From positions 554,675-618,674 of the forward strand of contig JADJJZ010000029.1 in assembly GCA_016706255.1 (NCBI GenBank): 64,000 nucleotides of DNA, in the 5' to 3' direction. Below the pieces are notes generated by a model. It saw only the letters and a program-made list of their open reading frames with translations, did not search any database and was not told the origin of the DNA. Of this stretch, positions 19,901 to 49,661 are shown piece by piece (position 1 is the stretch's first letter; the number at the start of each line of letters is the position of its first letter). The DNA comes from Bacteroidota bacterium. GTDB lineage: Bacteria > Bacteroidota > Bacteroidia > Chitinophagales > BACL12. The translations under genes and the position numbers were made by a program.

Positions 19901-20916
19901 CAGGCACCACCATCAGGAATACGTGCGCGCACATGATTTACCTGTAACATGTCGGTATAAATACTATCCGTTTGATTTCCCACAGGGTCAAATAAATAAA
20001 TATTTTCACCATTGGCTATTTTAAAATCGGTGTGTAATTCGGTAGCAGTTCCCGGATTACTAAACCAATCGGGATTATCAAAAAAATACGTATCGGGTGT
20101 AGAAATACCAAAATGTAACCATGTTCTTCCCGTTGCATCATCAGCACCATACTGATGAATTTCAACAGCTAAAACATTGGTACCATCAACTAATAAAGAA
20201 GCAATTAATGCAGAATCTAATTCAATTGTTTTTGGATTTAATCCCATATACATTAATGCTTCGTGCCAATAATTTGCATAGGTGCTATGTGTAGGAACAC
20301 CCTGAATATTGATTCTTGCAACTTCAACATCATTGATATACGCTACAAATCCATCATCATAATCCATACTTAGAATGGTTTTTATGATTTTCGATTTATC
20401 AACTATTTCAAATTCTTTTCTATAATATAAGCAGGAGCTAAATCCGGCGATTATAGTATTATCATCACCATCACCTGTGCCAAATCCACCCTGCCCTGTA
20501 GCCCAAACTGTTGCGAACGAAACATCATTCCAGTTAGCAGGTGGTTCGGTGGTGCCGTTTTTATATTCCCAAATATCATCATCAAAAATGGCTGTTTCCC
20601 AGTGGTCAACAGGCGATACCGGACAACTCGCACAGTTGCGGTTTTTTCCGGATGCATAAACTAACACACGACCGTTTGGCGGCACGATGGAATCAGAAAA
20701 ATACCATTTACCATCAATGGCTTTACTATCAGCAAGCGCATATCCTGCCAGGTTTACAGATGTTGCTCCGGCATTATACAATTCTATCCAATCGGAATAG
20801 TCGCCGTCTTCATCGGTATAAATATTAAAATTGGTGCTCGACACTTCATTGATAACTAACTGTGCCGGTAATTGAAGGGTGAACAGAAAAAAAATAACAG
20901 TACAAACTTTATTCAT
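16951..20916 (-). CDS. CotH kinase-family protein with multiple lamin-tail (LTD) domains, a chitobiase/FN3-associated-like segment and a T9SS CTD
   Basis: 1321 aa. Three LTD-like segments (LVINEVSSTNFN...SDWIELYNAG; IVISEVNYNPDS...GDWIEIMNN; LVDEINYNSAPFADAGDWFELYN). Central region consistent with CotH (my recall of the family). IYYTTDGSNPDVGASVYTAPI. CTD AVYPNPATNQITLIL...GMYYLLVSNNNITYSGAFVKE. Confidence 0.7.
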   Translation of the reverse strand: MNKVCTVIFFLFTLQLPAQLVINEVSSTNFNIYTDEDGDYSDWIELYNAGATSVNLAGYALADSKAIDGKWYFSDSIVPPNGRVLVYASGKNRNCASCPVSPVDHWETAIFDDDIWEYKNGTTEPPANWNDVSFATVWATGQGGFGTGDGDDNTIIAGFSSCLYYRKEFEIVDKSKIIKTILSMDYDDGFVAYINDVEVARINIQGVPTHSTYANYWHEALMYMGLNPKTIELDSALIASLLVDGTNVLAVEIHQYGADDATGRTWLHFGISTPDTYFFDNPDWFSNPGTATELHTDFKIANGENIYLFDPVGNQTDSIYTDMLQVNHVRARIPDGGAWCYSDEPTPLAANDVTCYNGYAEAPVITTAPGFYAGSVDVAITGSTIYYTTDGSNPDVGASVYTAPITYTNTGVVKAMQTEAGKLPSPVVTGTYFIDEPTTLPVVSVIANPCDLFNDGPGCIAAYDNAEGWFNRNPKVSVAVEYYDQDHVKQFGDNYKFECVGNYSISLPQKSMRFVGDEDYGTKSDIAYNVFEHDKPGMEFVHGFRVRNADQDYSGTRMKDITINRIGLPTNSISTGYQNCVVFINGEYWGMYGAREEMDEYFLRDNFGVNPDAVDMIKTGWGGEEKTIAEVGSDTAYYALIDLILDNDMTDPAIYEQVKNEIDVENWVDYIATEVFTDQEEWLYILENNIRLFRSYSPDIKWRYILWDCTNSQFSSNANTLQSSLNNPNNSVYGDMFSALLENDEYRNYFINRFADLINYYFTEESNDAIIDELKAEMEAEVTPQNIRWSTGALGFWNSQVNSLYTFYDNRNANQRNHIKSYFGLAGLVDITLAANPPEAGYVKISTIVPENLPWTGVYFNGNPVTVTAIPNPGYTFANWSTNPFIVSPTDISFNNNITTATTFTANFTGSAIPNPIVISEVNYNPDSTFNGGDWIEIMNNSDVAVDVSSYHLIEKYFYSDFELPNNTVIPAHGFLVLAENKAQFNEKYPSITNVVGDYNFSLKNDSDMILLTDFLNDTVSIFTYQDNRPWPFTADGYGRTMELKDAAANPALPGSWFEGCIGGSPGAAYSLCMENPLVDEINYNSAPFADAGDWFELYNYDNAAVDLSGWTLKDKTGNTFKIPEGTVLDGSSYLVFYSDATKFNTAFPDVSNKVGPIYFSYDGNGDVILIYDAAGKIFQSVGFDDASPYPLTPDGGGTALQIVDVEANINFASNWTESCPEGSPGAAYLTPCGIDIHDSNVEAIAVYPNPATNQITLILPATISGITEVQIIDITGKIIMSKQYDASLNTMLSVAQLSQGMYYLLVSNNNITYSGAFVKE

Positions 20917-32929: not shown

Positions 32930-33272
32930 AAAATAGAATTTAATAATTAAAACATTTTCACCTTCCAAAGATGACCATTATTCAATACGAGGTGTTACAC
33001 AAATATTTTTTTGTTTTGTATAATTCACTGATGTGATAAAGTAATATGGTGTGTTGGTAGGGTTTGCAAGAGTCAAAGACCGGAGTGTTCGAGTGGGCTC
33101 TTGGCTCAATATTAAATTATTATTCCGGCATAACCTTGCGATAAATTGGAAGAAGAAATGAACATGTTTACATCAAATTTTCTTGCCTTAGCGGGTTGAA
33201 GGGTTTTATGTTTTTTTGGGGTGCATTAAACTCCTCGGACTAAATTATAATAAAATTTATCCTACCCAATCG

Positions 33273-33331
33273 CAATTTGCCTACGGTTGTAGGGACGCAT
33301 GCAAATCGTCCCTACAGCCATAGGCCAATTG
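33273..33331. repeat. type-A long hairpin element (GTAGGGACG...CGTCCCTAC core)
   Basis: CAATTTGCCTACGGTTGTAGGGACG / CGTCCCTACAGCCATAGGCCAATTG arms, flanked by conserved CCCAATCG and CTCAATT. Confidence 0.8.
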
Positions 33332-33482
33332 CTCAATTTATTTCCTGAACCACATTTTTCCTTTATAGTTTTACGGGTTGTGTATTTTTTTTCGGGTTTA
33401 AGCGTCATGCTCGGACATCAATGGGTCACCGGAAATTAATTTTGGATTAATTTGACCTATATAGGATTTATGTTACCCGATC

Positions 33483-33543
33483 GCAAATGGCATTGGTTTG
33501 TAGGGGCGGATTCAATTCGCCCCTACAAACCAATGCCATTTGC
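33483..33543. repeat. type-A long hairpin element (variant core GTAGGGGCG), perfect 26-bp stem
   Basis: GCAAATGGCATTGGTTTGTAGGGGCG (33483-33508) is perfectly complementary to CGCCCCTACAAACCAATGCCATTTGC (33518-33543). Confidence 0.85.
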
Positions 33544-33619
33544 TCAATTTTGTGTTTAGAAGCATAATTACACTTCAAAACACAATGTTATAAATTTCAA
33601 TTTTTCTCAAAACTGTCAG

Positions 33620-33670
33620 CATTTATATTTTGTAGGGGCGAATTGCATCCGCCCATATAAAATATAAATG
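33620..33670. repeat. type-B hairpin element, diverged copy
   Basis: CATTTATATTTTGTAGGGGCG...CGCCCATATAAAATATAAATG, with type-B flanks CTCAAAACTGTC and ACGGAG. Confidence 0.6.
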
Positions 33671-33925
33671 ATGACAAATACGGAGTGATAAATGAAAATG
33701 AATGAAATAACCCAAGCTAGGTCAAAGTTGGGTTCGTGCATCACTCATAAATTATTTTTCCAACATGAGCCTGCAATAATTTGAAAGTTGAAATAAAAAT
33801 ATTTGCTGCTAATTAATTAAATTTAAATCGTTGTATGGTCGCAGGGTTTTACTGATTGTTTATTTTTTTGGGGTGTATGAACCCGGCTCGGACAACAGTA
33901 TAATAGGATTTATCTTACCCAATCG

Positions 33926-33983
33926 CAATTGGCCTGTGGATGTAGGACGCATGCAATTCGTCCCTACATCCACAGACCAATTG
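33926..33983. repeat. type-A long hairpin element
   Basis: CAATTGGCCTGTGGATGTAGGACG / CGTCCCTACATCCACAGACCAATTG. Confidence 0.8.
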
Positions 33984-34051
33984 CTCAATTAGGTTGCAAA
34001 AGCACAATTTGAAAAAAGGGCATTTCGCAAATTGACTTTCCACTCAAAATT

Positions 34052-34112
34052 GTCCTGCATGTTATTTTGTAGGGACGTATTGCATGCGTCCTTACAAAAT
34101 AATTTGCAGGAC
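34052..34112. repeat. type-B long hairpin element
   Basis: GTCCTGCATGTTATTTTGTAGGGACG-TATTGCATG-CGTCCTTACAAAATAATTTGCAGGAC. Confidence 0.85.
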
Positions 34113-34345
34113 GCTTACGGAGCTGTTGATGACAATGATTGAAAAAATATAAATGTTTGTCCGGGATGGGGTTGCGTTTCTAAAAAAAGATTATTCTTAA
34201 AAAAGCCTGCAAAAAATTAGAACGATGATGCACCTATCTACTGCAAATAAATTCATCATATTTCCGTGTCCCAAAGGCTTGTTTTTTTATGAGAATTTAT
34301 TACAAATGGTTAAAATGTTGCTTTCACAGTTACCTCAAAAAACAT

Positions 34346-34353
34346 TATCTTAG
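34346..34353 (+). promoter_or_regulatory. conserved TAYCTTAG box (candidate -7 promoter element) upstream of paralog A
   Basis: TATCTTAG lies 16 nt before the ATG at 34370. The same box and spacing occur upstream of B and G, and 19 nt upstream of E. It resembles TAnnTTTG. Confidence 0.35.
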
Positions 34354-34369
34354 CTTTAATATTATCTCC

Positions 34370-36303
34370 ATGAAGATTATAGTATTCATACTGGTGTTCA
34401 CAGTTGGCTTTAATACGCTAGCACAAATACCGGAAATCGATTGGCAAAACACTTATGGTGGGTCAAGTTGGGATATTCCCTGGGCTATTATGCAAACACC
34501 TTCAGACAGTGGATATATAGTTGCAGGAGTTACCGAATCTACAGACGGTGATATTTTAGAAAATGCAGGTATTTATGATTATTGGGTAGTTAAATTAGAT
34601 AGTCTTGGTGAAATAATATGGCAAAAAACCTACGGTGGTTCTAGTATAGATGAATGTGAAGAAATTATTTCAACTGGGGATGGCGGCTATTTATTAGTTG
34701 GTTATACCTATTCAGACGATGGTGATATTTCATATTCGCACGGAAGTGTTGATTATTGGATTATTAAAATTAATAGTAGTGGTGAATTGGAATGGGAAAA
34801 AACTTACGGTGGGTCTAAAGGAGATTTTGGACAAAAAGCTATCATGCTGCCTTCAGGTAATTTTGTTATAATTGGCAACTCACAATCTAGCGATGGTGAT
34901 ATTTCAATGCACCACGAGGGTTTTGATACACCAGAAGACATTTGGATTATCGAAATTAATTCTTTTGGTGATTTGATTTGGGAGCATAGCTATGGTTCAT
35001 CAAATGTTGAAAATGCACGTGATATTATTTTAGATATGGATGCTATGGTAGTAACTGGTTATACATATGGGGGTTCAGACGGAGATATTGAGTCCTCTGA
35101 TGGTGCATCCGATTATTGGGTATTTAAAATAAATTTATTTGGGGACATTATTTGGGAGAGCACTTTTGGTGGTGATGATTATGACTATGGTGCATCAATT
35201 GGTCAATTGCAGAATGGCGAATATATTGTTTGCGGAACAACCTCATCTACAGATGGTGATATAATTGATTTTCATGGAGGATATTCGGATGCATTTATAG
35301 TAATTATTGACAGTCTTGGAAATTTAAAAAACTCTTTTTGCTATGGTGGAAGTAATTATGACTCAAGTTATGATTTAAAGATAGTTGACGATAATAGCAT
35401 TTTAATTTCTGGAACTTCCTCTTCAATTGATGGGGACTTAACTGAAAATAATGGTGACGCTGACTTTTGGATAATTATGGTTGATAGCTCAGGTCTTATC
35501 AAATGGCAAAAATCTTTAGGTGGTACATTAGACGAATATGCTATTTGTTTATCACTCACCCAACAACTTAATTCTTATGCTGTGGCTGGTCGCACCCACT
35601 CTTCAGATGTAGATTTAGACTTTAATCATGGTAATTATGATTTCTGGGTAGTTAAATTAGATATCTGTGAAAATAAATATTTCCTTGATAACGACGGCGA
35701 TGGTTTTGGTGATATTACTAATGATTCAAGTGCATGTGATATACCTTTGGGATATGTGATTGATTCAACCGATTGTAATGATTCATTAAATTTTATAAAT
35801 CCTTCAGTTAAAGAAATTTGCAATTACATTGATGATAATTGTAACAGTGAAATTGATGAAGGTCTAACATTAATACTTTCATTTGAAGATTTAGACAGTG
35901 ATAGTTATGGCAATGAATTAATTGATTCTATCGCATGTGAAATTCCTCCGGTTACGTTTTATCCAACACCGACTGCAACGACACCAATCCCGACATCAAC
36001 CCCGGCGCACCGGAACTCCTCAACGGCCTCGACGACGATTGCGACCAAATTGCTGATGAAGGTTTAGCAATAACAGATATTGTAAAAAATACAATAAGTA
36101 TTTTCCCGAATCCGGTAAATAATACATTATTTATTCAATCGGATGCAACACAACAAATAACAATTGTAAATCAATTAGGAGAAGAAATATTATACACAAA
36201 TTTATTTATAGGTTTAAATACAATTTCGGTAGCAGATTTTGCGAGTGGTGTGTATTGGGTGAAAGTGGAAAATGGGGAGATGGTGGTTTGGGTGAAGGAG
36301 TGA
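34370..36303 (+). pseudogene. family-1 T9SS cargo paralog A (propeller-like repeats, 2 Cys-rich MopE-like modules, CTD); single 1-nt deletion
   Basis: The listed ORF 34289..36067 ends in out-of-frame text (CEIPPVTFYPTPTATT...KLLMKV*). At 35948-35949 the sequence is CC, where paralogs have CCC (AATTCCTCCCGGTTACG). Restoring one C reads CEIPPGYVLSNTDCNDTNPDIYPGAPELLNGLDDDCDQIADEGL plus the CTD, ending at TGA 36301-36303. The real start is probably MKIIVFILVF at 34370. Confidence 0.75.
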
Positions 36304-36482
36304 GTGAGGGGCTAGATTGAAACAGCCATTGAACATCCATTGAATCAAAATTGAACAAAATTGAACGAGCCCGATAGCCGTCGGGAGAATCAAAATTGAG
36401 ATTGGTTATTCGCATTAAAATTTTGATTCAATTTTAAAATTTATAAAATTTGAAATGATGTAAACAATATTTACTCAAAATT
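36304..36482. repeat. conserved 3'-flanking module of family-1 gene blocks (ATTGAAC-rich, with an 11-bp-stem hairpin)
   Basis: AGATTGAAACAGCCATTGAACATCCATTGAATCAAAATTGAACAAAATTGAAC... Hairpin GAATCAAAATT (36387-36397) / AATTTTGATTC (36419-36429). Homologous copies at 45909-46100 and 53879-54047. Confidence 0.75.
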
Positions 36483-36543
36483 GTCCTGCATGTTATTTTG
36501 TAGGGACGTATTGCATGCGTCCTTACAAAATAAGAGGCAGGAC
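36483..36543. repeat. type-B long hairpin element
   Basis: GTCCTGCATGTTATTTTGTAGGGACGTATTGCATGCGTCCTTACAAAATAAGAGGCAGGAC. Confidence 0.85.
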
Positions 36544-36777
36544 GCTTACGGAGCGATAATTGAAAATGATTGAAAAAACCAACCTGTCCGAGCGGGGTTC
36601 TTGCCTCAATAAAAAATTATTAATCCGGCACAACCCTGCTATAAATTGGAAGTAGAAATGAACTTGTATGCTGCGAATTAGTTTATCAAAATACTATATT
36701 TAAAAAGTGGTAAGGCCTTCAGAGTTGTATATGCTTTCGAGTGAATAATTGTAAATTTCATTTACATAAAAAAACAT

Positions 36778-36785
36778 TACCTTAG
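36778..36785 (+). promoter_or_regulatory. conserved TAYCTTAG box upstream of paralog B
   Basis: TACCTTAG lies 16 nt before the ATG at 36802. The leader AAAAACATTACCTTAGTAGTAATATAAATTCCATG parallels that of A and G. Confidence 0.35.
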
Positions 36786-36801
36786 TAGTAATATAAATTC
36801 C

Positions 36802-38942
36802 ATGAAAATTTATTTATTTATCCTCTTTGCTGTTTTAAACCTAACTGCACAGGCACAAGAACCTGAAATACAATGGCAAAAGGCATTTGGAGGGGCAGGG
36901 TACGATGATGCATATTCAATTTTCGAAACTTTAGACAATGGGTTTATTGTTAGCGGTGATACTTGGTCAAATGATGGGGATGTAACCGATTATAATGGAT
37001 CAGGTGACTTTTGGATTTTAAAGTTAAGTAGCGATGGAGAAGCTGAATGGAAGGAAACATATGGTGGTAGTGGTTGGGAGGAATCCTACAAAATTATCCA
37101 AACTAGTGACTTAGGATTTTTAGCGGTAGGATTTTCCACTTCAAGCGATGGAGATTTAACACTAAACCAAGGAGATCAAGATTTTTGGATTCTAAAACTT
37201 GATGAATCAGGGGCTATTCAATGGCAAAAAACTTTAGGAGGCTCAGGTTCTGATAGGGCATACTCTGTTCAACAAACAACTGATGGAGGCTATGTGGTTG
37301 CGGGACTTTCTTCGTCATCTGATGGCGATGTTACAGGAAATCATGGCGCTGCTGATTTTTGGGTAATCAAGTTAAATATTTTTGGTGATTTGATTTGGCA
37401 AAAGTCTCTAGGAGGTACACAAAACGATTATGCTAAATCCATTATTGAAATTCCGGGCGAGGGGTTTGTCGTAACTGGATATGTTGAGTCTAATACAGGT
37501 GATGTAACTGGAAATAATGGTGAGAGTGATTATTGGGTTGTGAAGTTATCAGAAGCTGGAGATATTATATGGCAAAAATGTTTTGGGGGTACAAATTTCG
37601 AATTTGCAAATTCATTAGCTCGAACAAGCAACAACGGATTTCTTATTCTTGGTTATACATTATCTGACAATGGTGATGTATCAGGTTTCCATGGTGGTTA
37701 TTCAGATTATTGGCTAATTAATATAGATAGTTCTGGAGCGTTACTTTGGCAAAAATGTTTTGGGGGAACCGCAACAGATCAAGGATTTTCTATTTGCTCA
37801 ACCAATGATAGTTCATATATACTTACCGGGTATTCTGGTTCAAATAATGGTGATGTCACAGGGCATCACGGTGGAGCGTTATACCCTGATTATTGGGTAA
37901 TAAAAATTGATACAATAGGAAATATTGTTTGGCAAAAATCATTAGGTGGCAATTCAAGTGATGAGTCTTTTTCTGTTGTCCAAACTTCAGATACAGGTAT
38001 TGCTATAGCGGGATGGGCTTTTTCTACTGATGGTGATGTTACGGGACATCATGGTGTGGCACTAAATAGAGATTTGTGGATTGTAAAATTAGGCATGCCT
38101 TGTATTGAAAATATGTTTTATGCAGATTTAGATGGTGATGGTTTTGGCAATATTTCATTAGATACATTAGCATGCGAAGCGCCCATTGGTTTTGTAAATG
38201 ATTCCACCGATTGCAACGATTTAAATCCCGAAATCCATCCCACATTAACAGATATTTGTAATGCCATCGATGATAATTGCAACGGATTAACCGATGAAGA
38301 TGCAACATTTGTTACCTATTTCGCAGATATTGATGGAGATACTTTTGGTGATATATTAAATGATTCAACTGCATGTAATGAATTAATCGGTTATGTGTTA
38401 GATAATAGTGATTGTAATGATTCTAATAATGCAATCTACCCCGGCGCCACTGAAATCTGCAACTACCTCGATGATGATTGTGACGGTATTACAGATGATA
38501 ATGTTACCTTCATTCAAAGTTTTATCGATGCTGATAACGACAATTTCGGCAACGCTGATTTTGATTCCATCGCATGCGAAATTCCTCCCGGTTACGTTTT
38601 ATCCAACACCGACTGCAACGACACCAATCCCGACATCTACCCCGGCGCACCGGAACTCCTCAACGGCCTCGACGACGATTGCGACCAAATTGCTGATGAA
38701 GGTTTAGCAATAACAGTTATTGTAAAAATACAATAAGTATTTTCCCGAATCCGGTAAATAATATATTATTTATTCAATCAGATGCAACACAACAAATTAC
38801 AATTGTAAATCAATTAGGAGAAGAAATATTACACACAAATTTATTTATTGGATTAAATACCATTTCGGTAGCAGATTTTGCGAGTGGTGTGTATTGGGTG
38901 AAAGCGGAGGATGGGGAGATGGTGGTTTGGGTGAAGGAGTGA
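36802..38942 (+). pseudogene. family-1 paralog B (about 7-8 propeller-like repeats, 3 Cys-rich modules); CTD out of frame through a 1-nt deletion in an A-run
   Basis: ORF 36802..38736 ends ...LAITVIVKIQ*. The A-run at 38724-38728 is A5, but A6 in copies A, D, G and H (GTAAAAAATAC). Restoring one A reads NTISIFPNPVNNILFIQSD...WVKE, ending at TGA 38940-38942. Confidence 0.75.
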
Positions 38943-38968
38943 GTGTGCGAAATTAAAATGAAAAAATT

Positions 38969-41202
38969 ATGTTTAAAATTCGCTCTATAAAAATATTAAT
39001 GGCATTGAAAATTAATGCTCGTTTTATTTGCATATTATTTTTTGGTTTTTCTTGTCTTTATAATAAAGCAAATGCACAAGCTACAAGTATAGAATGGTCA
39101 AATGCACTTGGCGGTCCGGGTTATGAAGATGCAACGGATGTTATTTATTCTAATGACGGAGGGTATCTGGTGGTTGCTAACTCAGGAGAAATAGGTGGTG
39201 ATGTGACAGGTTTTTATGGTGGAGCAGTAGACATTTGGTTAACTAAATTAGATAGTGCGGGAAATCTTGTTTGGCAGAAAAATTATGGGGGGTCAAATAT
39301 TGAAAAATCCCGTGCAGGTATTGCGACGATAGATGGTGGATATATTATCGTAGGCTATACTGGCTCTGAAGATCATGATGTAAGTTTTAACCATGGACTC
39401 ACCGATGCATGGGTTTTTAAAGTAGATTCAATAGGAAATATAGTATGGGAAAGGTCATATGGTGGTACAAAAAGTGAGCAAGGATGGGCGATTTGTGGAA
39501 CAGATGATGGGAATTTCGTATTCGTAGGATATAGCCATTCAAATAATGGTGATTTGACATCTCATTACGTTACCACGGCTACTTCAGACTTTTGGATTGT
39601 AAAAATCGACAATACAGGTAACATCATTTGGCAAAAATCATACGGCAGTACGGAAGATGACTATGCATATGGTGTTGTGGAGCTATTCAATGGTGATATT
39701 ACAGTCGGTGGAGTAACACAATGGGGAGATGGTGATGTAATAGGATTTCATGGCGGTATTGGGGTTGAAGATGGATGGGTAATTGATTTAGATTCTAATG
39801 GCGCATTGAAATGGAGTAAAGCTTATGGTGGTACAGACTATGACGTTATATGGGATATCACTAAGGCGTCTGATTCCACAATTCACTGTGTTGGACAAGC
39901 AAAATCATTTGATGGAGATATAACAGACCATAAAGGAACTCCGGATGATTATTATTTAGATGATTGCATGTATCTAAGGCTTGATTCTTCTGGGAATTTA
40001 CTTATAGAAAAGTGCTTTGGAGGGTCAGGCAGTGATGTTGGGTTCTCATTAAGTACAACAATGGATGGGACTGTTATATTAGGAGCTAATTCATCAAGTA
40101 ATGATGGAGATGTATCAGGACATCACGGGGGTGAATATACTAGTGATTTTTGGATAGTGAAGCTGGACTCTTTTGCTAATATCGAATGGTCTGTATCGCT
40201 TGGTGGTGATACCGCAGATGCCAGTTATTCCATCATTCAAGCACCTGATTCTGGGTATGTTACTGTTGGAATTTGTGTATCAGAAAATGGTGATGTAGTT
40301 GACCACTATCCAGGCACATTACACTGGGATTCCTGGGTGGTTAAACTCAATAAAACCTGTCCTGGAATTTTATATTATGCTGATAAGGATGGTGATGGTT
40401 ACGGTGATCCAACTGATATACAAATGTTTTGCTCAGATATGGTTGGATATGTATTAAATAATTTAGACTGTAATGATAATGATGCAGAAATTAATCCTAC
40501 AATAGCTGAAATATGTAACACGTTAGACGATAATTGTAATGGTATTGTTGATGAAGGCCTAGCATTGTTTACCCTTTTCGAGATTTAGATGGTGATACTT
40601 TTGGGAATGATACTGATTTTATAACATCGTGTCTTGAATATATTTCAGGTTTTGTTTTAGACTCAACCGATTGTAATGATACTAACGAATTTATTTTTCC
40701 GGGTGCTGAAGAACTCTGCAACTACCTCGATGATGATTGTGATGGTATTACCGATGATAATGTCACCTTCATACAAAGTTTTATTGATGCTGATAACGAC
40801 AATTTCGGAAACCCTGATTTTGATTCTATCGCATGCGAAATTCCTCCCGGTTACGTTTTATCCAACACCGACTGCAACGACACGAATCCCGACATCTACC
40901 CCGGCGCACCCGAACTCCTCAACGGTCTCGACGACGATTGTGATCAAATTGCTGATGAAGGTTTAGCAATAACAGATATTGTAAAACATACAATAAGTAT
41001 TTTCCCGAATCCGGTAAATAATATATTATTTATTCAATCGGATGCAACACAACAAATTACAATTGTAAATCAATTAGGAGAAGAAATATTACAAACAAAT
41101 TTATTTATTGGTTTAAATACCATTTCTGTAGCAGATTTTGCGAGTGGTGTGTATTGGGTGAAAGCGGAGGATGGGGAGATGGTGGTTTGGGTGAAGGAGT
41201 GA
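38969..41202 (+). pseudogene. family-1 paralog C (tandem twin of D); single 1-nt deletion in a T-run
   Basis: ORF 38969..40588 ends LALFTLFEI*. The T-run at 40575-40578 is T4, versus T5 in D at 42835-42839. Downstream sequence is colinear with D (equal length to the stop at 41200-41202) and encodes RDLDGDTFGND..., two more Cys-rich modules and the CTD. Confidence 0.8.
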
Positions 41203-41228
41203 GTGTGCGAAATTAAAATGAAAAAATT

Positions 41229-43463
41229 ATGTTTAAAATTCGCTCTATAAAAATATTAATGGCATTGAAAATTAATGCTCGTTTTATTTGCATATTATTT
41301 TTTGGTTTTTCTTGTCTTTATAATCAAGCAAATGCACAAGCTACAAGCATAGAATGGTCAAATGCACTAGGCGGCCCGGGTTATGAAGATGCAACGGATG
41401 TTATTCAATCTAATGACGGTGGCTATCTCGTTGTTGCTAACTCAAGAGAAGTAGGTGGTGATGTGACAGGTTTTTATGGTGGAGCAGTAGACATTTGGTT
41501 AACTAAATTAGATAGTTCCGGAAATCTTGTTTGGCAAAAAAATTATGGAGGTTCAAATTTTGAACAATCATGTTCCGGTATTGCGACTATAGATGGTGGA
41601 TATATTATAACCGGTTATTCTTCTTCTATGGATTTTGATGTCAGTTTTAATCATGGGCTTTTTGATGCATGGCTTTTCAAAATTGATTCAATTGGTAATT
41701 TACAGTGGGAAAAGTCATATGGAGGTTCCAAGACTGAAATAGCATGGGCAATATGTCCAACTCAAGATGGAAATTTTGTATTCGCAGGATATAGCTATTC
41801 AAATGATGGTGATTTGACATCTCATTACGGTACCACGGCTACTTCAGACTTTTGGATTGTAAAAATCGACAATACAGGTAACATCATTTGGCAAAAATCA
41901 TACGGCAGTACGGAAGATGACTATGCATATGGTGTTGTGGAGCTATTCAATGGTGATATTACAGTCGGTGGAGTAACACAATGGGGAGATGGTGATGTAA
42001 TAGGATTTCATGGCGGTATTGGGGTTGAAGATGGATGGGTAATTGATTTAGATTCTAATGGCGCATTGAAATGGAGTAAAGCTTATGGTGGTACAGACTA
42101 TGACGTTATATGGGATATCACTAAGGCGTCTGATTCCACAATTCACTGTGTTGGACAAGCAAAATCATTTGATGGAGATATAACAGACCATAAAGGAACT
42201 CCGGATGATTATTATTTAGATGATTGCATGTATCTAAGGCTTGATTCTTCTGGGAATTTACTTACAGAAAAGTGCTTTGGAGGGTCAGGCAGTGATGTTG
42301 GGTTCTCATTAAATGCAACAATGGATGGGACTGTTATATTAGGAGCTAATTCATCAAGTAATGATGGAGATGTATCAGGACATCACGGGGGTGAATATAC
42401 TAGTGATTTTTGGATAGTGAAGCTGGACTCTTTTGCTAATATCGAATGGTCTGTATCGCTTGGTGGTGATACCGCAGATGCCAGTTATTCCATCATTCAA
42501 GCACCTGATTCTGGGTATGTTACTGTTGGAATTTGTGTATCAGAAAATGGTGATGTAGTTGACCACTATCCAGGCACATTACACTGGGATTCCTGGGTGG
42601 TTAAACTCAATAAAACCTGTCCTGGAATTTTATATTATGCTGATAAGGATGGTGATGGTTACGGTGATCCAACTGATATACAAATGTTTTGCTCAGATAT
42701 GGTTGGATATGTATTAAATAATTTAGACTGTAATGATAATGATGCAGAAATTAATCCTACAATAGCTGAAATATGTAACACGTTAGACGATAATTGTAAT
42801 GGTATTGTTGATGAAGGCCTAGCATTGTTTACCCTTTTTCGAGATTTAGATGGTGATACTTTTGGGAATGATACTGATTTTATAACATCGTGTCTTGAAT
42901 ATATTTCAGGTTTTGTTTTAGACTCAACCGATTGTAATGATACTAACGAATTTATTTTTCCGGGTGCTGAAGAACTTTGCAACTACCTCGATGATGATTG
43001 TGATGGTATTACCGATGATAATGTCACCTTCATACAAAGTTTTATTGATGCTGATAATGACAATTTCGGAAACCCTGATTTTGATTCCATCGCCTGCGAA
43101 ATTCCATCCGGTTACGTTTTATCCAACACCGACTGCGACGACACCAATCCCGACATCTACCCCGGCGCACCCGAACTCCTCAACGGCCTCGATGATGATT
43201 GCGACCAAATTGCTGATGAAGGTTTAGCAATAACAGTTATTGTAAAAAATACAATAAGTATTTTCCCGAATCCGGTAAATAATATATTATTTATTCAATC
43301 GGATGCAACACAACAAATAACAATTGTAAATCAATTAGGAGAAGAAATATTACAGACAAATTTATTTATTGGATTAAATACGATTTCGGTAGCCGATTTT
43401 GCGAGTGGTGTGTATTGGGTGAAAGTGGAGGATGGGGAGATGGTGGTTTGGGTTAAGGAGTGA
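41229..43463 (+). CDS. family-1 paralog D: the only uninterrupted copy (signal peptide, propeller-like repeats, 3 Cys-rich MopE-like modules, T9SS CTD)
   Basis: 744-aa ORF. Repeats of the form W-Q-K-x-Y-G-G-S...DGGY...G-x-T-x-S-x-D-G-D-V...D-x-W-(I/V)-V-K-(L/I)-D. Cys-rich modules such as DCDDTNPDIYPGAPELLNGLDDDCDQIADEG. CTD ISIFPNPVNNILFIQSD...GVYWVKVEDGEMVVWVKE. Confidence 0.85.
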   Translation: MFKIRSIKILMALKINARFICILFFGFSCLYNQANAQATSIEWSNALGGPGYEDATDVIQSNDGGYLVVANSREVGGDVTGFYGGAVDIWLTKLDSSGNLVWQKNYGGSNFEQSCSGIATIDGGYIITGYSSSMDFDVSFNHGLFDAWLFKIDSIGNLQWEKSYGGSKTEIAWAICPTQDGNFVFAGYSYSNDGDLTSHYGTTATSDFWIVKIDNTGNIIWQKSYGSTEDDYAYGVVELFNGDITVGGVTQWGDGDVIGFHGGIGVEDGWVIDLDSNGALKWSKAYGGTDYDVIWDITKASDSTIHCVGQAKSFDGDITDHKGTPDDYYLDDCMYLRLDSSGNLLTEKCFGGSGSDVGFSLNATMDGTVILGANSSSNDGDVSGHHGGEYTSDFWIVKLDSFANIEWSVSLGGDTADASYSIIQAPDSGYVTVGICVSENGDVVDHYPGTLHWDSWVVKLNKTCPGILYYADKDGDGYGDPTDIQMFCSDMVGYVLNNLDCNDNDAEINPTIAEICNTLDDNCNGIVDEGLALFTLFRDLDGDTFGNDTDFITSCLEYISGFVLDSTDCNDTNEFIFPGAEELCNYLDDDCDGITDDNVTFIQSFIDADNDNFGNPDFDSIACEIPSGYVLSNTDCDDTNPDIYPGAPELLNGLDDDCDQIADEGLAITVIVKNTISIFPNPVNNILFIQSDATQQITIVNQLGEEILQTNLFIGLNTISVADFASGVYWVKVEDGEMVVWVKE

Positions 43464-43557
43464 GTTGGGAAAATACCCCAATTGTGAATACCAAGCCCTG
43501 TGTGAACGGCGTCTCGCCTGTCATTAGTTTTTATTAAATTTTATCACAAGTATTTAC

Positions 43558-43565
43558 TACCTTAG
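43558..43565 (+). promoter_or_regulatory. conserved TAYCTTAG box upstream of paralog E
   Basis: TACCTTAG lies 19 nt before the ATG at 43585. Confidence 0.3.
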
Positions 43566-43584
43566 TAGTCCCGACGAAAAATAC

Positions 43585-45908
43585 ATGAAATCACTAATTT
43601 TTATCTACATGTTTATTTTTATAGTGCAAGCAAGATTTGCTCAAGCACCGGATATTATTTGGCAAAAATCTTTTGGTGGAAGTGATTACGACCAACCTGC
43701 TAAAATTATAACTGCTCCAGATTCTAGTTTTTTATTATTTGGTGACACGCGATCGGTGGATTTTGATATTGAGAATAATCATGGTTCACGAGATATTTGG
43801 TTATTAAACATTGATGTCAGTGGAAATTTACTTTGGGAAAATACTTATGGCGGTTCGAGCATTGATTATGGTAGATCGTTAACGATTGGTAATGATAATC
43901 AAGTATTAATGACAGGTTATACAAATTCGATAGACGGAGATGTCTCTGAATTTTATGGTATTTATGATTATTGGACTGTCGCCTCTGATTTATTGGGTAC
44001 AATTGTGTGGGGAAAAAATTTTGGTGGTAGTGAATACGATGGATCCAGAGGGATAAGTGAACTTTTAGATGGATATTTGATAATAGGTGACTCTAAATCA
44101 TCCGATGGTGATGTATTAGGGTTACATGGAATTACTAATTCAGATTTTTGGGTGATCAAAATATCTAATGAAGGCGACCTTATTTGGCAAAAATGCTATG
44201 GTTCCAATAACACAGAGCAACCAAACTCAATAGTTAAAACATTAGAAAATGAGTATATAATTGCTGGGACCACCTTAGGAGAAGGGGGCGACGTGACAGG
44301 TAATCATGGATCTACTGATATCTGGGTAATAAAAATTGATTCAGTAGGGAATTTAATTTGGCAAAAATGTTATGGTGGATCTGACGTTGATGGTATAAGT
44401 AAGATTTTAAATACACCTGATGGCGGATTTATACTCAGTGGTGAAACATATTCAAATAATGGTGATGTTTCAGGTTTTCATGGTGGAATAAATGATGGAT
44501 GGATAATAAAAATTGACAGCATTGGAAATATAGAATGGCAAAAGTGTTATGGCGGCTCTGGTAGTGATGAAATTTATTCTATTATTTTACTTGATGACGG
44601 TAATTTTTTATTCGGAGGTCGGTCTACTTCTGCAGACGGAGACTTAACTGAAAATAAGGATGGAAATGATTGTTGGTTAGTTAAAATTAACCCAGAAGGC
44701 GATATAATTTGGCAAAAATCGTTTGGAGGATATGATGAAGATGTAATTTATGATATTGTTGAAGCTGAAAATGGGGATATTATTTTTTTAGCCGAAAGTC
44801 TTTCTTCTGATGGTGATTTAACTTTAAATATGGGAAATTGGGATTTTTGGGTTGTGCGATTAGGTTATTGTACAACCAAATATTTTGAGGACACCGATGG
44901 CGATGGTTACGGAGATATTTCTTCAGATACATTATCTTGCGAATTACCCACGGTTATGTTTTAGACTCCACCGATTGCAACGATTTAAATCCCGAAATCC
45001 ATCCAACATTAACAGATATTTGTAATGTGATTGATGATAATTGTAACGGATTAACAGATGAAGATGCAACATTTGTTACCTATTTCGCAGATATTGATGG
45101 TGATACTTTTGGTGATGTATTAAATGATTCAACTGCTTGTAATGAATTAATTGGTTATGTGTTAGATAATACCGATTGCAACGATTTAAATCCCGAAATT
45201 CATCCAACATTAACAGATATTTGTAATGCCATTGATGATAATTGTAACGGATTAACAGATGAAGATGCAACATTTGTTACTTATTTTGCAGATATTGATG
45301 GAGATACTTTTGGTGATATATTAAATGATTCAACTGCATGTAATGAATTAATCGGTTATGTGTTGGATAATACTGATTGCAACGATACCAATAATGCAAT
45401 CTTCCCCGGCGTCACCGAACTCTGCAACTACCTCGATGATGATTGTGACGGAATAACAGATGATAATGTCACCTTCATTCAAAGTTTTATTGATGCCGAC
45501 AACGACAATTTCGGAAACCCTGATTTTGATTCCATCGCATGCGAAATTCCACCCGGCTACGTTTTATCCAACACCGACTGCAATGACACCAATCCCGACA
45601 TCTACCCCGGCGCACCGGAACTCCTCAACGGCCTCGACGACGATTGCGACCAAATTGCTGATGAAGGTTTAGCAATAACAGATATTGTAAAACATACAAT
45701 AAGTATTTTCCCGAATCCGGTAAATGCGATTTTATTTATTCAATCGGATGCGATACATAAAATTACTATTGTAAATCAATTAGGAGAAGAAATATTATAC
45801 ACCAATTTATTTATCGGTATAAATACCATTTCTGTAGCAGATTTTGCGAGTGGTGTGTATTGGGTGAAAGCGGAGGATCTGGAGATGGTGGTTTGGGTGA
45901 AGGAGTGA
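43585..45908 (+). pseudogene. family-1 paralog E (propeller-like repeats, 4 Cys-rich modules, CTD); single 1-nt deletion
   Basis: ORF 43585..44964 ends SCELPTVMF*. ORF 44937..45908 continues the same protein in another frame. Adding one G to the GG at 44952-44953 reads CELPTGYVLDSTDCNDLNPEIHP. Confidence 0.75.
44973..45374 (+). repeat. 2 x 201-bp in-frame tandem duplication inside paralog E (one Cys-rich module plus linker)
   Basis: GATTGCAACGATTTAAATCCCGAAAT... recurs at 44973 and 45174, and the next unit begins at 45375. The translations DCNDLNPEIHPTLTDICN(V/A)IDDNCNGLTDEDATFVTYFADIDGDTFGD(V/I)LNDSTACNELIGYVLDNT are nearly identical. There is a single copy in B (~38208-38408). Confidence 0.85.
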
Positions 45909-46100
45909 GTTGGGGGGTAAGATTGAAACAGCCATTGAGCATCCATTGAATCAAAATTGAACAAGATTGCACAAAATTGAACAAAATTGAACCATTCAGA
46001 TTGCTATCAGGAGAATTAAAATTGAGGTTGGATTTTCGCATTAAAATTTTGATTCAATTTTAAAATTTGAAATGATGTAAACAATATTTTCCTCAAAAAT
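45909..46100. repeat. conserved 3'-flanking module (copy 2)
   Basis: Homologous to 36304-36482 and 53879-54047. Confidence 0.75.
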
Positions 46101-46161
46101 GTCATGCATGTTATTTTGTAGGGACGTATTGCATGCGTCCTTACAAAATAATTTGAAGGAC
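46101..46161. repeat. type-B long hairpin element
   Basis: GTCATGCATGTTATTTTGTAGGGACGTATTGCATGCGTCCTTACAAAATAATTTGAAGGAC. Confidence 0.8.
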
Positions 46162-46194
46162 GTTTACGAAGTGATAAATTAAAGATTTAATCTT

Positions 46195-46330
46195 TTACAA
46201 ATACAGTTGTAGTATACAAATTCCCTGTATACAAGTAAATTAAATATAAACCAGCGCTTAATTCAGAAGCATCAAAATTAAATGGTGATTGAATTTTATT
46301 GATTAATTCCAATTTAACGAATATTGACTT
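46195..46330 (-). pseudogene. 3' remnant (CTD end only) of a minus-strand family-1 gene homologous to paralog I
   Basis: 46195-46300 aligns with 54141-54250. On the minus strand it reads ...SAGLYLIYLYTGNLYTTTVFVKD*. No upstream gene body remains, because paralog-unrelated gene F starts at 46484. Confidence 0.7.
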
Positions 46331-46483
46331 CTTTAAAAAAATTACTTTTCTGATTTATAACTCTTACTATATCAATTCAGCAGTTGACGTAACCATATTA
46401 ATTACTGTGAAATTGGAAAGTTCTTACTTGAAAAACAAACTTTTTCACATTAAATTTGAGTGAATTTGCTAGATTCTTTTTAA

Positions 46484-49060
46484 ATGAGTAACCAAAAACA
46501 CCCCTTTTTGATACTATTGATGACTTTTGTTGTCTTTTGTAATTCTGGATATAGCCAAACACCAGACATGCGAATAGTCTATCTAAGTTCAGAGTCAGGA
46601 GAACCACTTGGCTATAATGGTAACATAGAACTTCTAAATAGTGTTTTTACCCCCAGTGGATGGGAGCATTTATACTATGAATCAATTGATACATCAGGGT
46701 TGTTTTCTAATGAAACTTGTCTTCTGTTTTTGGAGGGTAGCTATTCCACTTTTTCTGATTTGACGGATTTCTATATAGATTATTATTATGAAATCGAGCA
46801 GTATGTTTTTAACGGCGGTCACCTTTTTGTTAATATGTATTCTGCCGGTAATATATTTCTTGGATTTGATAGTATCAATAAAATTGATAATGGATTCGGT
46901 TCGATTTACGGCTATCATGATGATGATTCTTTGAATTCATTATTTTTTGGTCCACTTTATCCAATAACAAATCCCCTTGTTGGTATATACGGTGGATTTG
47001 GTCCACAAGCAGGTTATGGTACATTTTCCGGAGGTGACTATGATGTATATTTGTTTGATTTAACAGAACAATCTTTCGGAGGAGATACCTCTGCATATAG
47101 AGAAATTGCTATTGGGAAAATATTTGGTTCAGGAGAATTAATATTTGCAAATTTGACAATTGGTAATTGGGTGGACTATACTGCCACTTATAAAAATTTG
47201 CGTACAAATATTCTCTGGAAACTTTCACCATGTTTACATGCTGAAAATGACATAGGCGTTCAAGCATTAATAACTCCTGCGAATTCTTGCAATTTAACTG
47301 CTGAAGAATCTTTAAATATTTTGGTTCATAATTTTGGCTTCGCAGACCAAGATACATTTGATCTGAGTTTTCAGATTGATGGCGGTGCAATTATCACGGA
47401 ATCCTTCTCAGAAAATTTATCAGCATATTTATCTGATACAATTTCCTTTGTTGCAACTGCCGATTTTTCTGAATGTGGAGCGCATGAAATAAAAGTATGG
47501 ACTAATTTATTGAGCGATACGATATATCAAAACGATACTTTAATATATACAGTCGCGAATATATGCGCTTCTGAATCTACTATTGGTTTACCTAATGAAA
47601 TTTGCTATTTAAGTGATCTTATCATTGCCAACCCTGAGGTTGGAGGAGGTTATTGGGAAGGGCTTGGAATTATTGATGGAGATTTGGGAGTTTTAGACCC
47701 TGAAATTATAGGTGCAGGAAATGATGCTGTTATTTCTTACACATACCAAACAGCAATAGATTATACTCGCCAAATAATTCCATTTGAACCACCCGCATTT
47801 ACTGACTCAACTATTGTTTCATTAATATTAAATGATGATGTGGATACACTCTTATTACCTTTTGATTTTGTATTCTTTTCTAATTCCTACGATGTTTGTT
47901 ATCCTGCAAGTAATGGATATATTGCATTTGGGGAACCACATGACACTTGGTATATAAGCATCCCAGATGTTGGTGGCATAAACAATTTATTAGCTCTTGC
48001 AGGATATGACCTGAACCCAACAACCGGAGGAAGTATTTACTATTCGATTACCGGGTCGTTCCCTTATCGTCAATTACAATTACGATATTATGATGTACCT
48101 CTTTCAATCTCACCAGATCATTTTATTGATGTAACAACGGTATTATATGAGACCACTAATATTATTGATATATTCGTTGATAAATTGCCAGATGTTGGTG
48201 TATTAGGTTTTGTACAAGGAATCTCAAATATTGACGGAACTCAATATTATTATACAAAAACAACGGGAACTCCAGTTTGGTTTATAGGGGCAAATGATAC
48301 AGCCTTCCGATTTATTCCAACTTTATGCCCTCGTACCATTTTTGATACAATTCATATTGTTGGAAATGATACAGAAGACCTTTTAGGCCCGGATACTTTA
48401 TTTTGTTTCGGAGATAGCGTTGAACTACTGTCAAATACCAGTAGTAGTTATTATTTATGGAATACAGGGGATACAACACAATCAATTTTCGTTGACGAGA
48501 CAGGATTATATACCATTGAATTAGAATACATTTTGGGATGCAATATTATAGATACAATTAATGTTATAGAGCTAGACAGCATTATTTTAAATATTTCTTC
48601 GACACCTACAGATACAGACGTAAATACAGGTACCGCAACTGTAGAGGTGATTTCAGGTGGAGTAGCTCCATATACATATCTTTGGGACACAGGTGAAATA
48701 GCTTCAACAATTGAAAATCTTACCGCAGGTATCTATGTGGTCGAGGTTACAGACTCCTTCGGGTGCAAAACCACTGCATCTGTTGCAGTTGATAAAAATG
48801 TTTCGATTGGAGATTTTGAGACCTATAATTTATTAACTATTTTCCCTAACCCATCGACTAATTCATTTAGTGTTAAATTAAATTCAAACGTATATGAAGC
48901 AAATTGTGAATTGACTAATCTTGATGGAAAAGCAATTTTTAAAAGTAAAATTAATTCAGCTAACTTTGAAATAAACACCTCGCAATTTGTTAGAGGAGTT
49001 TATTTTTTAATAATTAGAACAAACTCAGGAAACTACTTTTCAAAAGTAGTGCTGCAATAA
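46484..49060 (+). CDS. large T9SS-secreted protein with an SprB-type repeat, unrelated to family 1
   Basis: 858 aa with a signal peptide. SprB-repeat-like segment (TATVEVISGGVAPYTYLWDTGEIASTIENLTAGIYVVEVTDSFGCKTTASVAV). CTD (LLTIFPNPSTNSFSVKLN...GVYFLIIRTNSGNYFSKVVLQ). Confidence 0.75.
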   Translation: MSNQKHPFLILLMTFVVFCNSGYSQTPDMRIVYLSSESGEPLGYNGNIELLNSVFTPSGWEHLYYESIDTSGLFSNETCLLFLEGSYSTFSDLTDFYIDYYYEIEQYVFNGGHLFVNMYSAGNIFLGFDSINKIDNGFGSIYGYHDDDSLNSLFFGPLYPITNPLVGIYGGFGPQAGYGTFSGGDYDVYLFDLTEQSFGGDTSAYREIAIGKIFGSGELIFANLTIGNWVDYTATYKNLRTNILWKLSPCLHAENDIGVQALITPANSCNLTAEESLNILVHNFGFADQDTFDLSFQIDGGAIITESFSENLSAYLSDTISFVATADFSECGAHEIKVWTNLLSDTIYQNDTLIYTVANICASESTIGLPNEICYLSDLIIANPEVGGGYWEGLGIIDGDLGVLDPEIIGAGNDAVISYTYQTAIDYTRQIIPFEPPAFTDSTIVSLILNDDVDTLLLPFDFVFFSNSYDVCYPASNGYIAFGEPHDTWYISIPDVGGINNLLALAGYDLNPTTGGSIYYSITGSFPYRQLQLRYYDVPLSISPDHFIDVTTVLYETTNIIDIFVDKLPDVGVLGFVQGISNIDGTQYYYTKTTGTPVWFIGANDTAFRFIPTLCPRTIFDTIHIVGNDTEDLLGPDTLFCFGDSVELLSNTSSSYYLWNTGDTTQSIFVDETGLYTIELEYILGCNIIDTINVIELDSIILNISSTPTDTDVNTGTATVEVISGGVAPYTYLWDTGEIASTIENLTAGIYVVEVTDSFGCKTTASVAVDKNVSIGDFETYNLLTIFPNPSTNSFSVKLNSNVYEANCELTNLDGKAIFKSKINSANFEINTSQFVRGVYFLIIRTNSGNYFSKVVLQ

Positions 49061-49262
49061 AAGTGGTTATTTATGAAAATATTTAATTACGACTCAAACA
49101 TGTGTTTAACTTATCCAACAGATAGAGTTCCGTATGTGATATTTTTTTGCAATGGGGAGACCACATAAATACAAATTAGCGAAATTAATACCATTTGTAA
49201 GACGTAATTAACTTGTATGCTGCGAATTAATTTATCAAAATTCCATATCTAGCAAGACTGCT

Positions 49263-49301
49263 GGACGCATGCAATTCGTCCCTACAGCCATAGGCCAATT
49301 G
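49263..49301. repeat. type-A hairpin element, right half only (truncated)
   Basis: GGACGCATGCAATTCGTCCCTACAGCCATAGGCCAATTG. The left arm is absent. This marks the left boundary of the duplication shared with 33947 onward. Confidence 0.7.
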
Positions 49302-49369
49302 CTCAATTAGGTTGCAAAAGCACAATTTGAAAAAAGGGCATTTCGCAATTTGACTTTTCACTCAAAATT

Positions 49370-49430
49370 GTCCTGCCTGTTATTTTGTAGGGACGTATTG
49401 CATGCGTCCTTACAAAATAAGAGGCAGGAC
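49370..49430. repeat. type-B long hairpin element
   Basis: GTCCTGCCTGTTATTTTGTAGGGACGTATTGCATGCGTCCTTACAAAATAAGAGGCAGGAC. Confidence 0.85.
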
Positions 49431-49661
49431 AGTTTAAAGTTGAGGATGACAATGATTTTAAAAATGTAAATGCTTGTCCGAGATGCGTTGCGTTTCTAAA
49501 AAAAGATTATTCTTAAACAAGCCTGCAAAAAATTAGAACGATGATGCACCTATCTACTGCAAATAAATTCATCATACTTCCGTGTCCCAAATGCTTATTT
49601 TTTTATGAGAATTTATTACAAATGGTTAAAATGTGGCTTTCACAGTTACCTCAAAAAACAT

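Follow-up and report, generated by a model that had tools for sequence, protein, structure and literature searches.

Near-identical ends around an anciently diverged core in two predicted type IX secretion cargo paralogues: a probable case of interlocus gene conversion in a Bacteroidota tandem array

Concerted evolution by interlocus gene conversion has been described for bacterial tuf genes, rRNA copies and surface-protein families, among others. Repetitive extragenic palindromes (REP/REPIN sequences) are mobilised by RAYT transposases in Proteobacteria. Among the cargo genes of the type IX secretion system (T9SS) in Porphyromonas gingivalis, recombination, gene conversion and domain rearrangement have been reported for kgp, rgpA, hagA and the genes of other adhesin-domain proteins (PMC5266723). 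The two paralogues described here, A and G, belong to a tandem array of predicted T9SS cargo genes in another member of the Bacteroidota, and, as in P. gingivalis, C-terminal regions are shared and recombination between paralogues or alleles produces mosaics (PMC5266723). The present system differs in its propeller and MopE motifs, in its host (an uncultured, activated-sludge Chitinophagales-like bacterium), in that the exchange takes in a non-coding promoter region, and in showing no sign that antigenic diversity is being generated. The A/G pattern is ordinary concerted evolution in a tandem T9SS cargo array, a well-known process, and it opens no new mechanism; its interest lies in a quantified example, from an uncultured activated-sludge bacterium, of regulatory and secretion-signal ends kept uniform while the functional cores stay distinct.

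The array was analysed in a stretch of 64,000 nucleotides (the window), to which all positions refer. Its genes are labelled A to H. A and G are old paralogues, and the cores of the seven array members compared (A, B, C, D, E, G and H) share only ~30–50% amino-acid identity. In each predicted protein a core resembling a beta-propeller is combined with Cys motifs of the MopE type and a sorting domain at the C-terminus. Three of the genes are located as follows.

34370-36303, + strand: gene A, encoding a signal peptide, seven propeller-like repeats of ~58 aa each, two Cys motifs of the MopE type and a C-terminal T9SS sorting domain
41229-43463: gene D open reading frame
49686-51618, + strand: gene G, a paralogue of gene A

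The Por_Secre_tail sorting domain (PF18962/TIGR04183) was matched in G, and in A once a frameshift was corrected, and both proteins begin with a signal peptide (MKIIVFILVF...AQ) recognised by inspection. With an N-terminal signal peptide and a Por_Secre_tail domain, A and G correspond to T9SS type-A cargo, and both are predicted to be secreted. A shared TGA ends the two tails at 36303/51618, past the apparent stop of A at 36067.

Alignment of A and G with MAFFT, together with sliding-window identity in window coordinates and an inverted-repeat search, resolved the segments below.

33925-33984, no strand assigned: type-A REP-like hairpin upstream of A, core GTAGGACGCATGCAATTCGTCCCTAC (inverted-repeat search)
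33945-34112 versus 49263-49430: REP-like part, 168 nt, 94.6% A/G identity
34052-34112, no strand assigned: type-B REP-like hairpin, with the G copy at 49370-49430 (inverted-repeat search)
34113-34170, + strand: linker, 75% A/G identity
34171-34393 versus 49487-49709 in G, + strand: proximal block and first 8 codons, 96.9% identity (216/223)
34394-34426: remainder of the signal peptide, 70% A/G identity
34427-35689 versus 49743-51003 in G, + strand: diverged core, 64.1% identity (808/1260)
35690-35946 versus 51004-51260 in G, + strand: tail T1, the first MopE motif and linker, 95.3% identity
35950-36303, + strand: tail T2, the last MopE motif and Por_Secre_tail sorting domain, 96.3% A/G identity
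49263-49709, + strand: upstream block of G, comprising half a type-A hairpin, a type-B hairpin, linker, proximal block and 8 codons (from the alignment)

An earlier, sequence-only reading of this DNA had proposed a conserved non-coding flank, a diverged core and a conserved tail, and the sliding-window check confirms that this pattern is real (96.9%, 64% and 95–96% identity, respectively; Fisher p = 4e-29 for block against core). The A/G identity changes in sharp steps at 34394-34426 and at about 35690, for which a uniform rate cannot account, and the only other copy of the proximal block (34171-34393) within the window is that of G. The particulars of that reading need some revision. The stretches 33947-34395 and 49263-49711 are nearly identical, as it stated, but a poorly conserved island (34103-34170) lies inside them; the offset of 15316 holds in part only, drifting from 15318 to 15316 through two 1-nt indels, with 33945, not 33947, pairing with 49263; and the last ~210 nt before the ATG contain 8 differences, including one indel, rather than about six (5 lie in the last 199 nt). 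The core, estimated by eye as roughly three-quarters identical, measures 64%, and the near-identical tail extends over about 614 nt (about 665 nt from DFWVVKL) instead of ~750 nt.

To place this profile among relatives, contigs from other strains and lineages were compared, with L009 as the orthologue of A and L007 as the orthologue of G. In the segment identity matrix the core follows orthology (A–L009 92.3%, G–L007 93.9%, A–G 64.1%), whereas in the flanks the paralogues are closer than the orthologues: the block gives 96.9% for A–G against 87.8% for A–L009 (G–L007, at 44%, is not homologous), T1 gives 95.3% against 86.0% and 79.8% for A–L009 and G–L007, and T2 gives 96.3% against 91.5% and 88.8%. 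The flanks thus group by genome and the core by orthology. Substitution rates (Nei–Gojobori) show the same division, since the core is saturated at synonymous sites (pS 0.69, dS about 1.9; dN/dS 0.17) while dS in the tail is only 0.15, the synonymous sites there having been homogenised. A saturated core with this dN/dS, combined with flanks that sort by genome and a core that sorts by orthology, points to recombination as the cause, not selection; and because synonymous sites and the non-coding block (3% difference) were homogenised too, constraint at the protein level does not explain the uniformity. Homogenisation of the flanks was one of two causes offered by the sequence-only reading, and it is the one that these comparisons favour: the ends of A and G have very probably been overwritten recently by interlocus gene conversion, that is, ectopic homologous recombination between array members, and the near-identity of the block would reflect its young age rather than unusual constraint. 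Conversion within tandem gene families elsewhere likewise leaves abrupt near-identical paralogue tracts beside anciently diverged sequence, with synonymous and non-coding sites homogenised and paralogues closer than orthologues inside the tracts. What sets the present case apart is that the tracts are the promoter/signal-peptide end and the secretion-signal end while the functional propeller cores stay distinct.

The second proposed cause was diversifying selection on the core. A related reading treats the core as a swappable cassette between conserved recombination anchors, of the antigenic or phase-variation type, and conserved ends around a variable middle do give a superficially cassette-like look in proteins that are surface-located or secreted. 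The rates contradict both versions: the core combines a dN/dS of 0.17 with saturated dS, exactly what the sequence-only reading had itself named as counting against diversifying selection, and the highest dN/dS in any 58-codon window is 0.47. The cores are also stable across strains (that of A is 99.9–100% identical in L001 and L008, that of G 99.7% in L010 and L011), which leaves the idea of the flanks as anchors for cassette exchange unsupported. Furthermore, A and G each have their own (putative) promoter and start codon, the REP doublet is never inverted in five independent assemblies, and the ORFs scanned in the window include no recombinase gene. We consider selection or cassette exchange an exceedingly unlikely origin of the pattern; the middles of A and G appear instead to have retained an ancient divergence under purifying selection. 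An invertible promoter was rejected as well, the five independent assemblies being collinear and the ORFs scanned containing no recombinase domain.

Strong purifying selection on the block as a cis-regulatory element (promoter and operators, leader RNA or small ORF) would also give near-identical upstream regions, and two features of the block bear on this.

34289-34369, + strand: upstream in-frame ATG with a 27-codon extension, not conserved
34346-34353, + strand: TAYCTTAG box, TATCTTAG; the same at 49662 (G) and 43558 (E), and TACCTTAG at 36778 (B)

The TAYCTTAG box, which the sequence-only reading had placed at 34346/49662 in the upstream block along with a type-B hairpin, was found there, as was the hairpin. 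It occurs exactly four times in the window, in each case 16–19 nt ahead of the start codon of A, B, E or G, and this fixed spacing lends the regulatory explanation some weight. The Bacteroidota –7 consensus is TAnnTTTG, from which the box is one mismatch away, and it is probably a promoter –7 element. A sigma-70 and terminator scan, not designed for Bacteroidota promoters, gave nothing above shuffled expectation. In L009 the proximal ~110 nt are 90–96% identical to A, and some constraint on the promoter probably adds to the signal there; the functional part of the block is likely only this last stretch, acting as a promoter (box, start codon and the ~110 nt before it). Beyond it the comparison runs the other way. 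Between the A orthologues the block has diverged faster (87.8% identity) than the coding core has (92.3%), with identity falling to only 78–80% in the distal half of the block; the G orthologue lacks the block, and L018 carries a 33-nt deletion inside it (34303-34335). An Rfam scan of 32900-54200 (E up to 1) returned only sub-threshold matches to miRNA models, located on the palindromes, and the predicted fold of 34165-34372 is no more stable than shuffled sequence (z = +0.34); a cis-regulatory RNA such as a riboswitch or leader was rejected on these grounds and on the faster divergence of the block than of the core between A and L009. Small ORFs in the block (34225-34353, and from 34289 onward) were likewise rejected, as L009 does not retain the codons at which they start. 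Both genes do have the in-frame ATG (34289/49605), and the view that its 27-residue extension is non-functional holds up: the ATG is AAG in L009, 11 codons are deleted in L018, and the ATG lies 5' of the likely –7 box. Selection on the block, moreover, could not explain the homogenised synonymous sites of the tail. Taken as the cause of the near-identity, strong regulatory constraint is thus very improbable, and for annotation the lesson is that near-identical non-coding sequence upstream of paralogues does not amount to a conserved regulatory element. Neither the GTDB representative genomes nor the JGI metagenome collection contained an exact copy of a 31-mer or a 30-mer taken from the block.

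Under the gene conversion model, the upstream block, running from REP-like hairpin through promoter to signal peptide, would have been ancestrally that of A and copied onto G. This polarity is suggested by the presence of the block in L009 and by the unrelated 5' region and signal peptide of G orthologues from other lineages; its basis is one moderately diverged A orthologue together with G orthologues found at another locus. More than one conversion event would be involved, as divergence between A and G varies along the flank, from 3% in the proximal block and 5% in the REP-like part to 25% in the linker and 30% in the remainder of the signal peptide. The homology at which conversion tracts start or end would come from the scattered REP-like palindromes and from the tail that the genes have in common. 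The tail of A is itself a mosaic. T1 is specific to the pair (95.3% between A and G, 72–78% with the other paralogues), while T2, the last 354 nt, is 91–97% identical across all seven members (A, B, C, D, E, G and H); up to 35950 the closest relative of the tail of A is G, and past that point B, E, H and D are closest. The sequence-only reading was right that the tails of A and G are nearly identical and overlooked that these last 354 nt are common to the whole family. The 5' region of G is similarly patched together: the segment just upstream of its A-like block (49195-49251) is 84% identical to the upstream region of B (36646-36702). The linker of A (34113-34170) is less similar to that of G than to the copies found ahead of B (36544-36578) and at 57169-57241.

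The course of events might also have been the reverse, with G arising as a recent whole-gene duplicate of A, its flanks identical by descent, and a G-type core taking the place of its own (49743-51003) afterwards. One replacement tract of 1.26 kb would account for both A-like flanks, and a G-type donor outside the array is plausible, as the G orthologues of related metagenome-assembled genomes (MAGs) are found elsewhere, following a TonB-receptor gene. Either a gene copy at a second locus or DNA from another strain would have been the donor in this scheme. The surroundings of G fit it less well: the far upstream segment (49195-49251) and the downstream junction to H resemble B/C rather than A, so that the G unit is not a simple copy of A, and the 3–30% spread in flank divergence argues for several events. 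We regard core replacement as rather unlikely. Both it and the conversion model invoke ectopic recombination, and they predict the same present-day pattern.

In keeping with conversion, variation between strains at the A locus is greatest upstream of the gene (33 mismatches in 300 nt, compared with about 3 over the 1500 nt of the core), and A-type and G-type variants are mixed in that region. Some of this mixing in metagenome contigs could come from chimeric assembly or from ordinary recombination between the alleles of different strains.

The treatment of the upstream block as one conserved unit needs qualification in another respect, in that its distal third is a repeated REP-like element that the sequence-only reading overlooked. 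The type-A and type-B hairpins, 99 nt apart, form an inverted doublet spanning the first 170 nt of the block. Further type-B copies are located at 33605, 36473, 46091, 54038 and 57136, and hairpin copies number about 12 across the whole window, which has three doublets; related loci carry such elements too. As that reading had recognised, G keeps only the right half of the type-A hairpin (49263-49302), A having it in full, and the A/G homology starts at 33945/49263, the GTA/GGACG junction inside this hairpin. These elements are short, imperfect palindromes that occur between genes in many copies, some of them in inverted pairs, and their stem contains GTAG; in all of this they resemble REP/REPIN sequences. 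They differ in belonging to another phylum, and the link of the palindromes to a conversion boundary is here one observed breakpoint; no RAYT (Y1 transposase) was detected among the 33 ORF products Pfam-scanned within the window. Since the homology starts exactly inside the hairpin and the module of G is grafted onto a B-like upstream region, the palindromes may be preferred breakpoints or initiation sites, and a module comprising the REP doublet, the promoter and the signal peptide may have moved between T9SS cargo genes. We put this forward as a decidedly speculative and unlikely reading, under which module transfer would rewire the expression of T9SS cargo genes.

Finally, both genes contain 1-nt frameshifts in the assembly, which the sequence-only reading overlooked; 1-nt indels in the array are located at 35946, 38724, 40576, about 44945, 50481 and 51713. 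A 1-nt deletion in the C-run at 35946/7 of gene A truncates the called ORF at 36067, and intact 644-aa versions of A are present in Illumina contigs (P0136-P0141; L008, L018, L019). Gene G is broken into two ORFs by one surplus base at 50481 (GGG for GG); L010 and L011 are without this base, and P0134 is the corrected G protein. Indels of this kind, found in the array and missing from the Illumina assemblies, speak of an imperfect repeat consensus, and could be taken to mean that the identical flanks are themselves an artefact of a collapsed or mis-polished repeat in a long-read MAG. That is hardly credible, however, as short-read contigs from several samples carry A with the block (L001, L008, L018) and G with the block (L010, L011), complete with A-specific and G-specific SNPs, and one contig (L019) starts in the block of A and finishes in that of G. 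Phase variation by homopolymer slippage was considered for the frameshifts and rejected: the tracts are very short (2–6 nt) and the G and H indels are missing from near-identical Illumina contigs, both of which make sequencing error more likely. The A and G frameshifts are probably homopolymer assembly errors, which sit in repeats that resist polishing, and the truncated or split proteins deposited for this MAG (for example, the 565-aa A from ATG 34370 and a 379-aa G fragment) are probably artefacts of the same kind.

The two genes compared here, A and G, belong to a tandem array of paralogues coding for T9SS cargo proteins.

Genes of the tandem array (start positions)
34370, + strand: A
36802, + strand: B
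38969, + strand: C
41229, + strand: D
43585, + strand: E
46484: F, an SprB-repeat gene unrelated to the family that interrupts the array
49686, + strand: G
51704, + strand: H

The array members encode a signal peptide, seven repeats of ~58 amino acids (period 174 nt, weakly similar to beta-propellers, those of SBBP type among them), between one and four MopE-type Cys motifs (PF11617) and a C-terminal sorting domain of the T9SS type (PF18962/TIGR04183). Homologues in Chitinophagales/Bacteroidota MAGs are annotated 'MopE-related' or 'T9SS type A sorting domain-containing protein'; A itself is deposited as MBK7443821.1 and a 3′ fragment of G as MBK7443832.1. The cores, the propeller-like middle parts of the proteins, share only about 30–50% amino-acid identity with one another. 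C, D and H (38969–43488; 51704–53963) form unit repeats of 2260 nt, and the C and D proteins are 93.7% identical over residues 1–538; the complete identity of 40145–40444 (C) and 42405–42704 (D) points to a very recent duplication or conversion within the array.

The pattern described in the sequence-only reading for A and G, a conserved flank, a diverged core and a conserved tail, stands on measurement (Fisher p = 4e-29 for block against core), with core identity corrected from about 75% to 64% and the length of the near-identical tail from 750 nt to about 614–665 nt.

Segment identities of A and G, and of each with an orthologue (A with L009, G with L007; coordinates in A)
33945–34112, REP-like part: A–G 94.6%
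34113–34170, linker: A–G 75%
34171–34393, proximal block to codon 8: A–G 96.9%; A–L009 87.8%; G–L007 44%, not homologous
34394–34426, rest of signal peptide: A–G 70%
34427–35689, core: A–G 64.1%; A–L009 92.3%; G–L007 93.9%
35690–35946, tail segment T1: A–G 95.3%; A–L009 86.0%; G–L007 79.8%
35950–36303, tail segment T2: A–G 96.3%; A–L009 91.5%; G–L007 88.8%

Two explanations had been proposed for this pattern, homogenisation of the flanks or diversifying selection on the core, and the second is rejected. Once one frameshift had been corrected in A and one in G, Nei–Gojobori estimates for the core gave pS = 0.69, a saturated dS of about 1.9, dN = 0.335 and dN/dS = 0.17, with dN/dS no higher than 0.47 in any 58-codon window. 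In the tail, dS is 0.15. These values are the very outcome that the sequence-only reading had set as a refutation of diversifying selection, and they indicate that A and G derive from an old duplication, the flanks of which were homogenised recently.

Homogenisation is supported by orthologues retrieved from independent metagenome contigs by exact-protein look-ups. Four contigs (L001, L008, L018 and L019) carry A from strains near the window's, the flanking genome of L001 being ~97% identical to the window, and L009, from an activated-sludge metagenome, carries a more distant A orthologue; G and H occur, 99.7% identical, on L010 and L011, and L007 and L012–L017 carry G orthologues with cores about 94% identical. 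The cores group by orthology, all A–G comparisons lying at ~64%, and the flank segments group by genome, with the paralogues closer than the orthologues in the proximal block, T1 and T2. This combination is what interlocus gene conversion classically leaves behind. What is seen here is ordinary concerted evolution in a tandem family of surface proteins, and exchange between T9SS cargo genes by recombination has precedent (PMC5266723).

The upstream block as a whole is under no unusual constraint, because between A and L009 it evolves faster than the coding core (its distal half is just 78–80% identical) and because the L018 strain, with an otherwise intact A gene, has lost 33 nt of it (contig position 1922, window 34303–34335) directly before the promoter-proximal motif TCAAAAAACATTATCTTAG. 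No Rfam family, significant RNA fold or conserved small ORF was found in the block. The window has exactly four copies of the box TAYCTTAG, one ahead of each of A, B, E and G and 16–19 nt from the ATG. The box differs by one mismatch from TAnnTTTG, the −7 promoter consensus in Bacteroidota, and is thus a putative −7 element. With a promoter here, the transcript would start downstream of the in-frame ATG at 34289; as this codon is also AAG in L009 and adjoins the L018 deletion, the earlier dismissal of an N-terminal extension from it is supported.

At finer scale, T2 is 91–97% identical across all seven array members, A being equally close to B, D, E, H and G, so that T1 and the upstream block alone show similarity specific to A and G. 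Of that block, the distal 170 nt consist of two REP-like palindromes, forming a doublet, whose core is GTAGGGACG...CGTCCCTAC. Such palindromes have two outer-arm classes, with some copies in inverted doublets 99 nt apart, and lie at 33247–33338, 33461–33664, 33900–34112, 36473–36578, 46092–46171, 49263–49465, 54039–54107 and 56998–57241, all intergenic and adjoining T9SS cargo genes. Similar palindromes lie between family genes in the related MAG loci (L012–L017), and no transposase was seen among the scanned ORFs of the window. On the left, A/G homology starts within a type-A hairpin, of which G keeps the right half only, and the sequence immediately beyond (G 49195–49251) resembles the upstream region of B; on the right, the G–H junction resembles the B–C and C–D junctions. 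G thus reads as pieced together from segments that are B-like, A-like, G-type or family-wide, and sub-segment divergence from 3% to 30% argues for several recombination events. That REP-like palindromes bound the tracts is a possible and mildly novel reading, with one breakpoint behind it.

For polarity, copying of A-type sequence onto G is the simplest reading: the upstream block is present in the A orthologue L009, and in other lineages the G orthologues begin with a 5′ region and a signal peptide (MLFSSFNVKC...) of unrelated sequence and occupy another locus, where they lie behind a TonB-receptor gene. The converse, a duplicate of A whose core was then replaced by a G-type core, may also account for the mosaic and would likewise be ectopic recombination. 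In related MAGs (L012–L017, e.g. GCA_016718695.1 JADKCT010000014.1) the G orthologue heads a small array of two to three family genes, with a TonB-dependent receptor gene on one side and a gene for a PAS sensor kinase on the other, unlike in the window, so either the position of G in the window is derived or the arrays have been rearranged.

Between strains, the window and L001 differ at ~3 positions in 1500 nt of the A core and at 33 within 33996–34296, and A-type variants occur mixed with G-type ones in the blocks of L001, L002, L006 and L008. This mixture fits continuing exchange and is supportive only, since allelic recombination between strains or assembler chimerism could also yield it. 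Against window 34150–49576, two independent short-read contigs, L018 (JGI 3300030384) and L019 (ERZ926532), show the order A-B-F-(G upstream) without C, D and E, the B tail being joined straight to what follows E; either the copy number of the array truly varies or the assembler took a shortcut via the shared tail.

Single-nucleotide indels in short homopolymers split or truncate the ORFs of A (35946), B (38724), C (40576), E (~44945), G (50481) and H (51713). Near-identical Illumina contigs (L010, L011) lack the indels of G and H, an intact G in the protein collection (P0134) equals the frameshift-corrected sequence, intact 644-aa A proteins occur there too, and A and B are intact in other assemblies. 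The errors that typically persist in Nanopore assemblies are homopolymer indels (PMC9262707), and a 64-kb window across a near-identical repeat array suggests that the MAG was assembled from long reads. The six indels are probably errors of the consensus that affect only the repeat-rich array, because window ORFs outside it are intact.

T9SS cargo genes are very dense throughout the window (1–64000), with a Por_Secre_tail domain in at least 17 of the ORF products scanned, among them a 1321-aa CotH/LTD protein (16951–20916). A second, unrelated tandem family at 59148–61319 (period ~983 nt, 62–89% identity) encodes small proteins with Por_Secre_tail domains.
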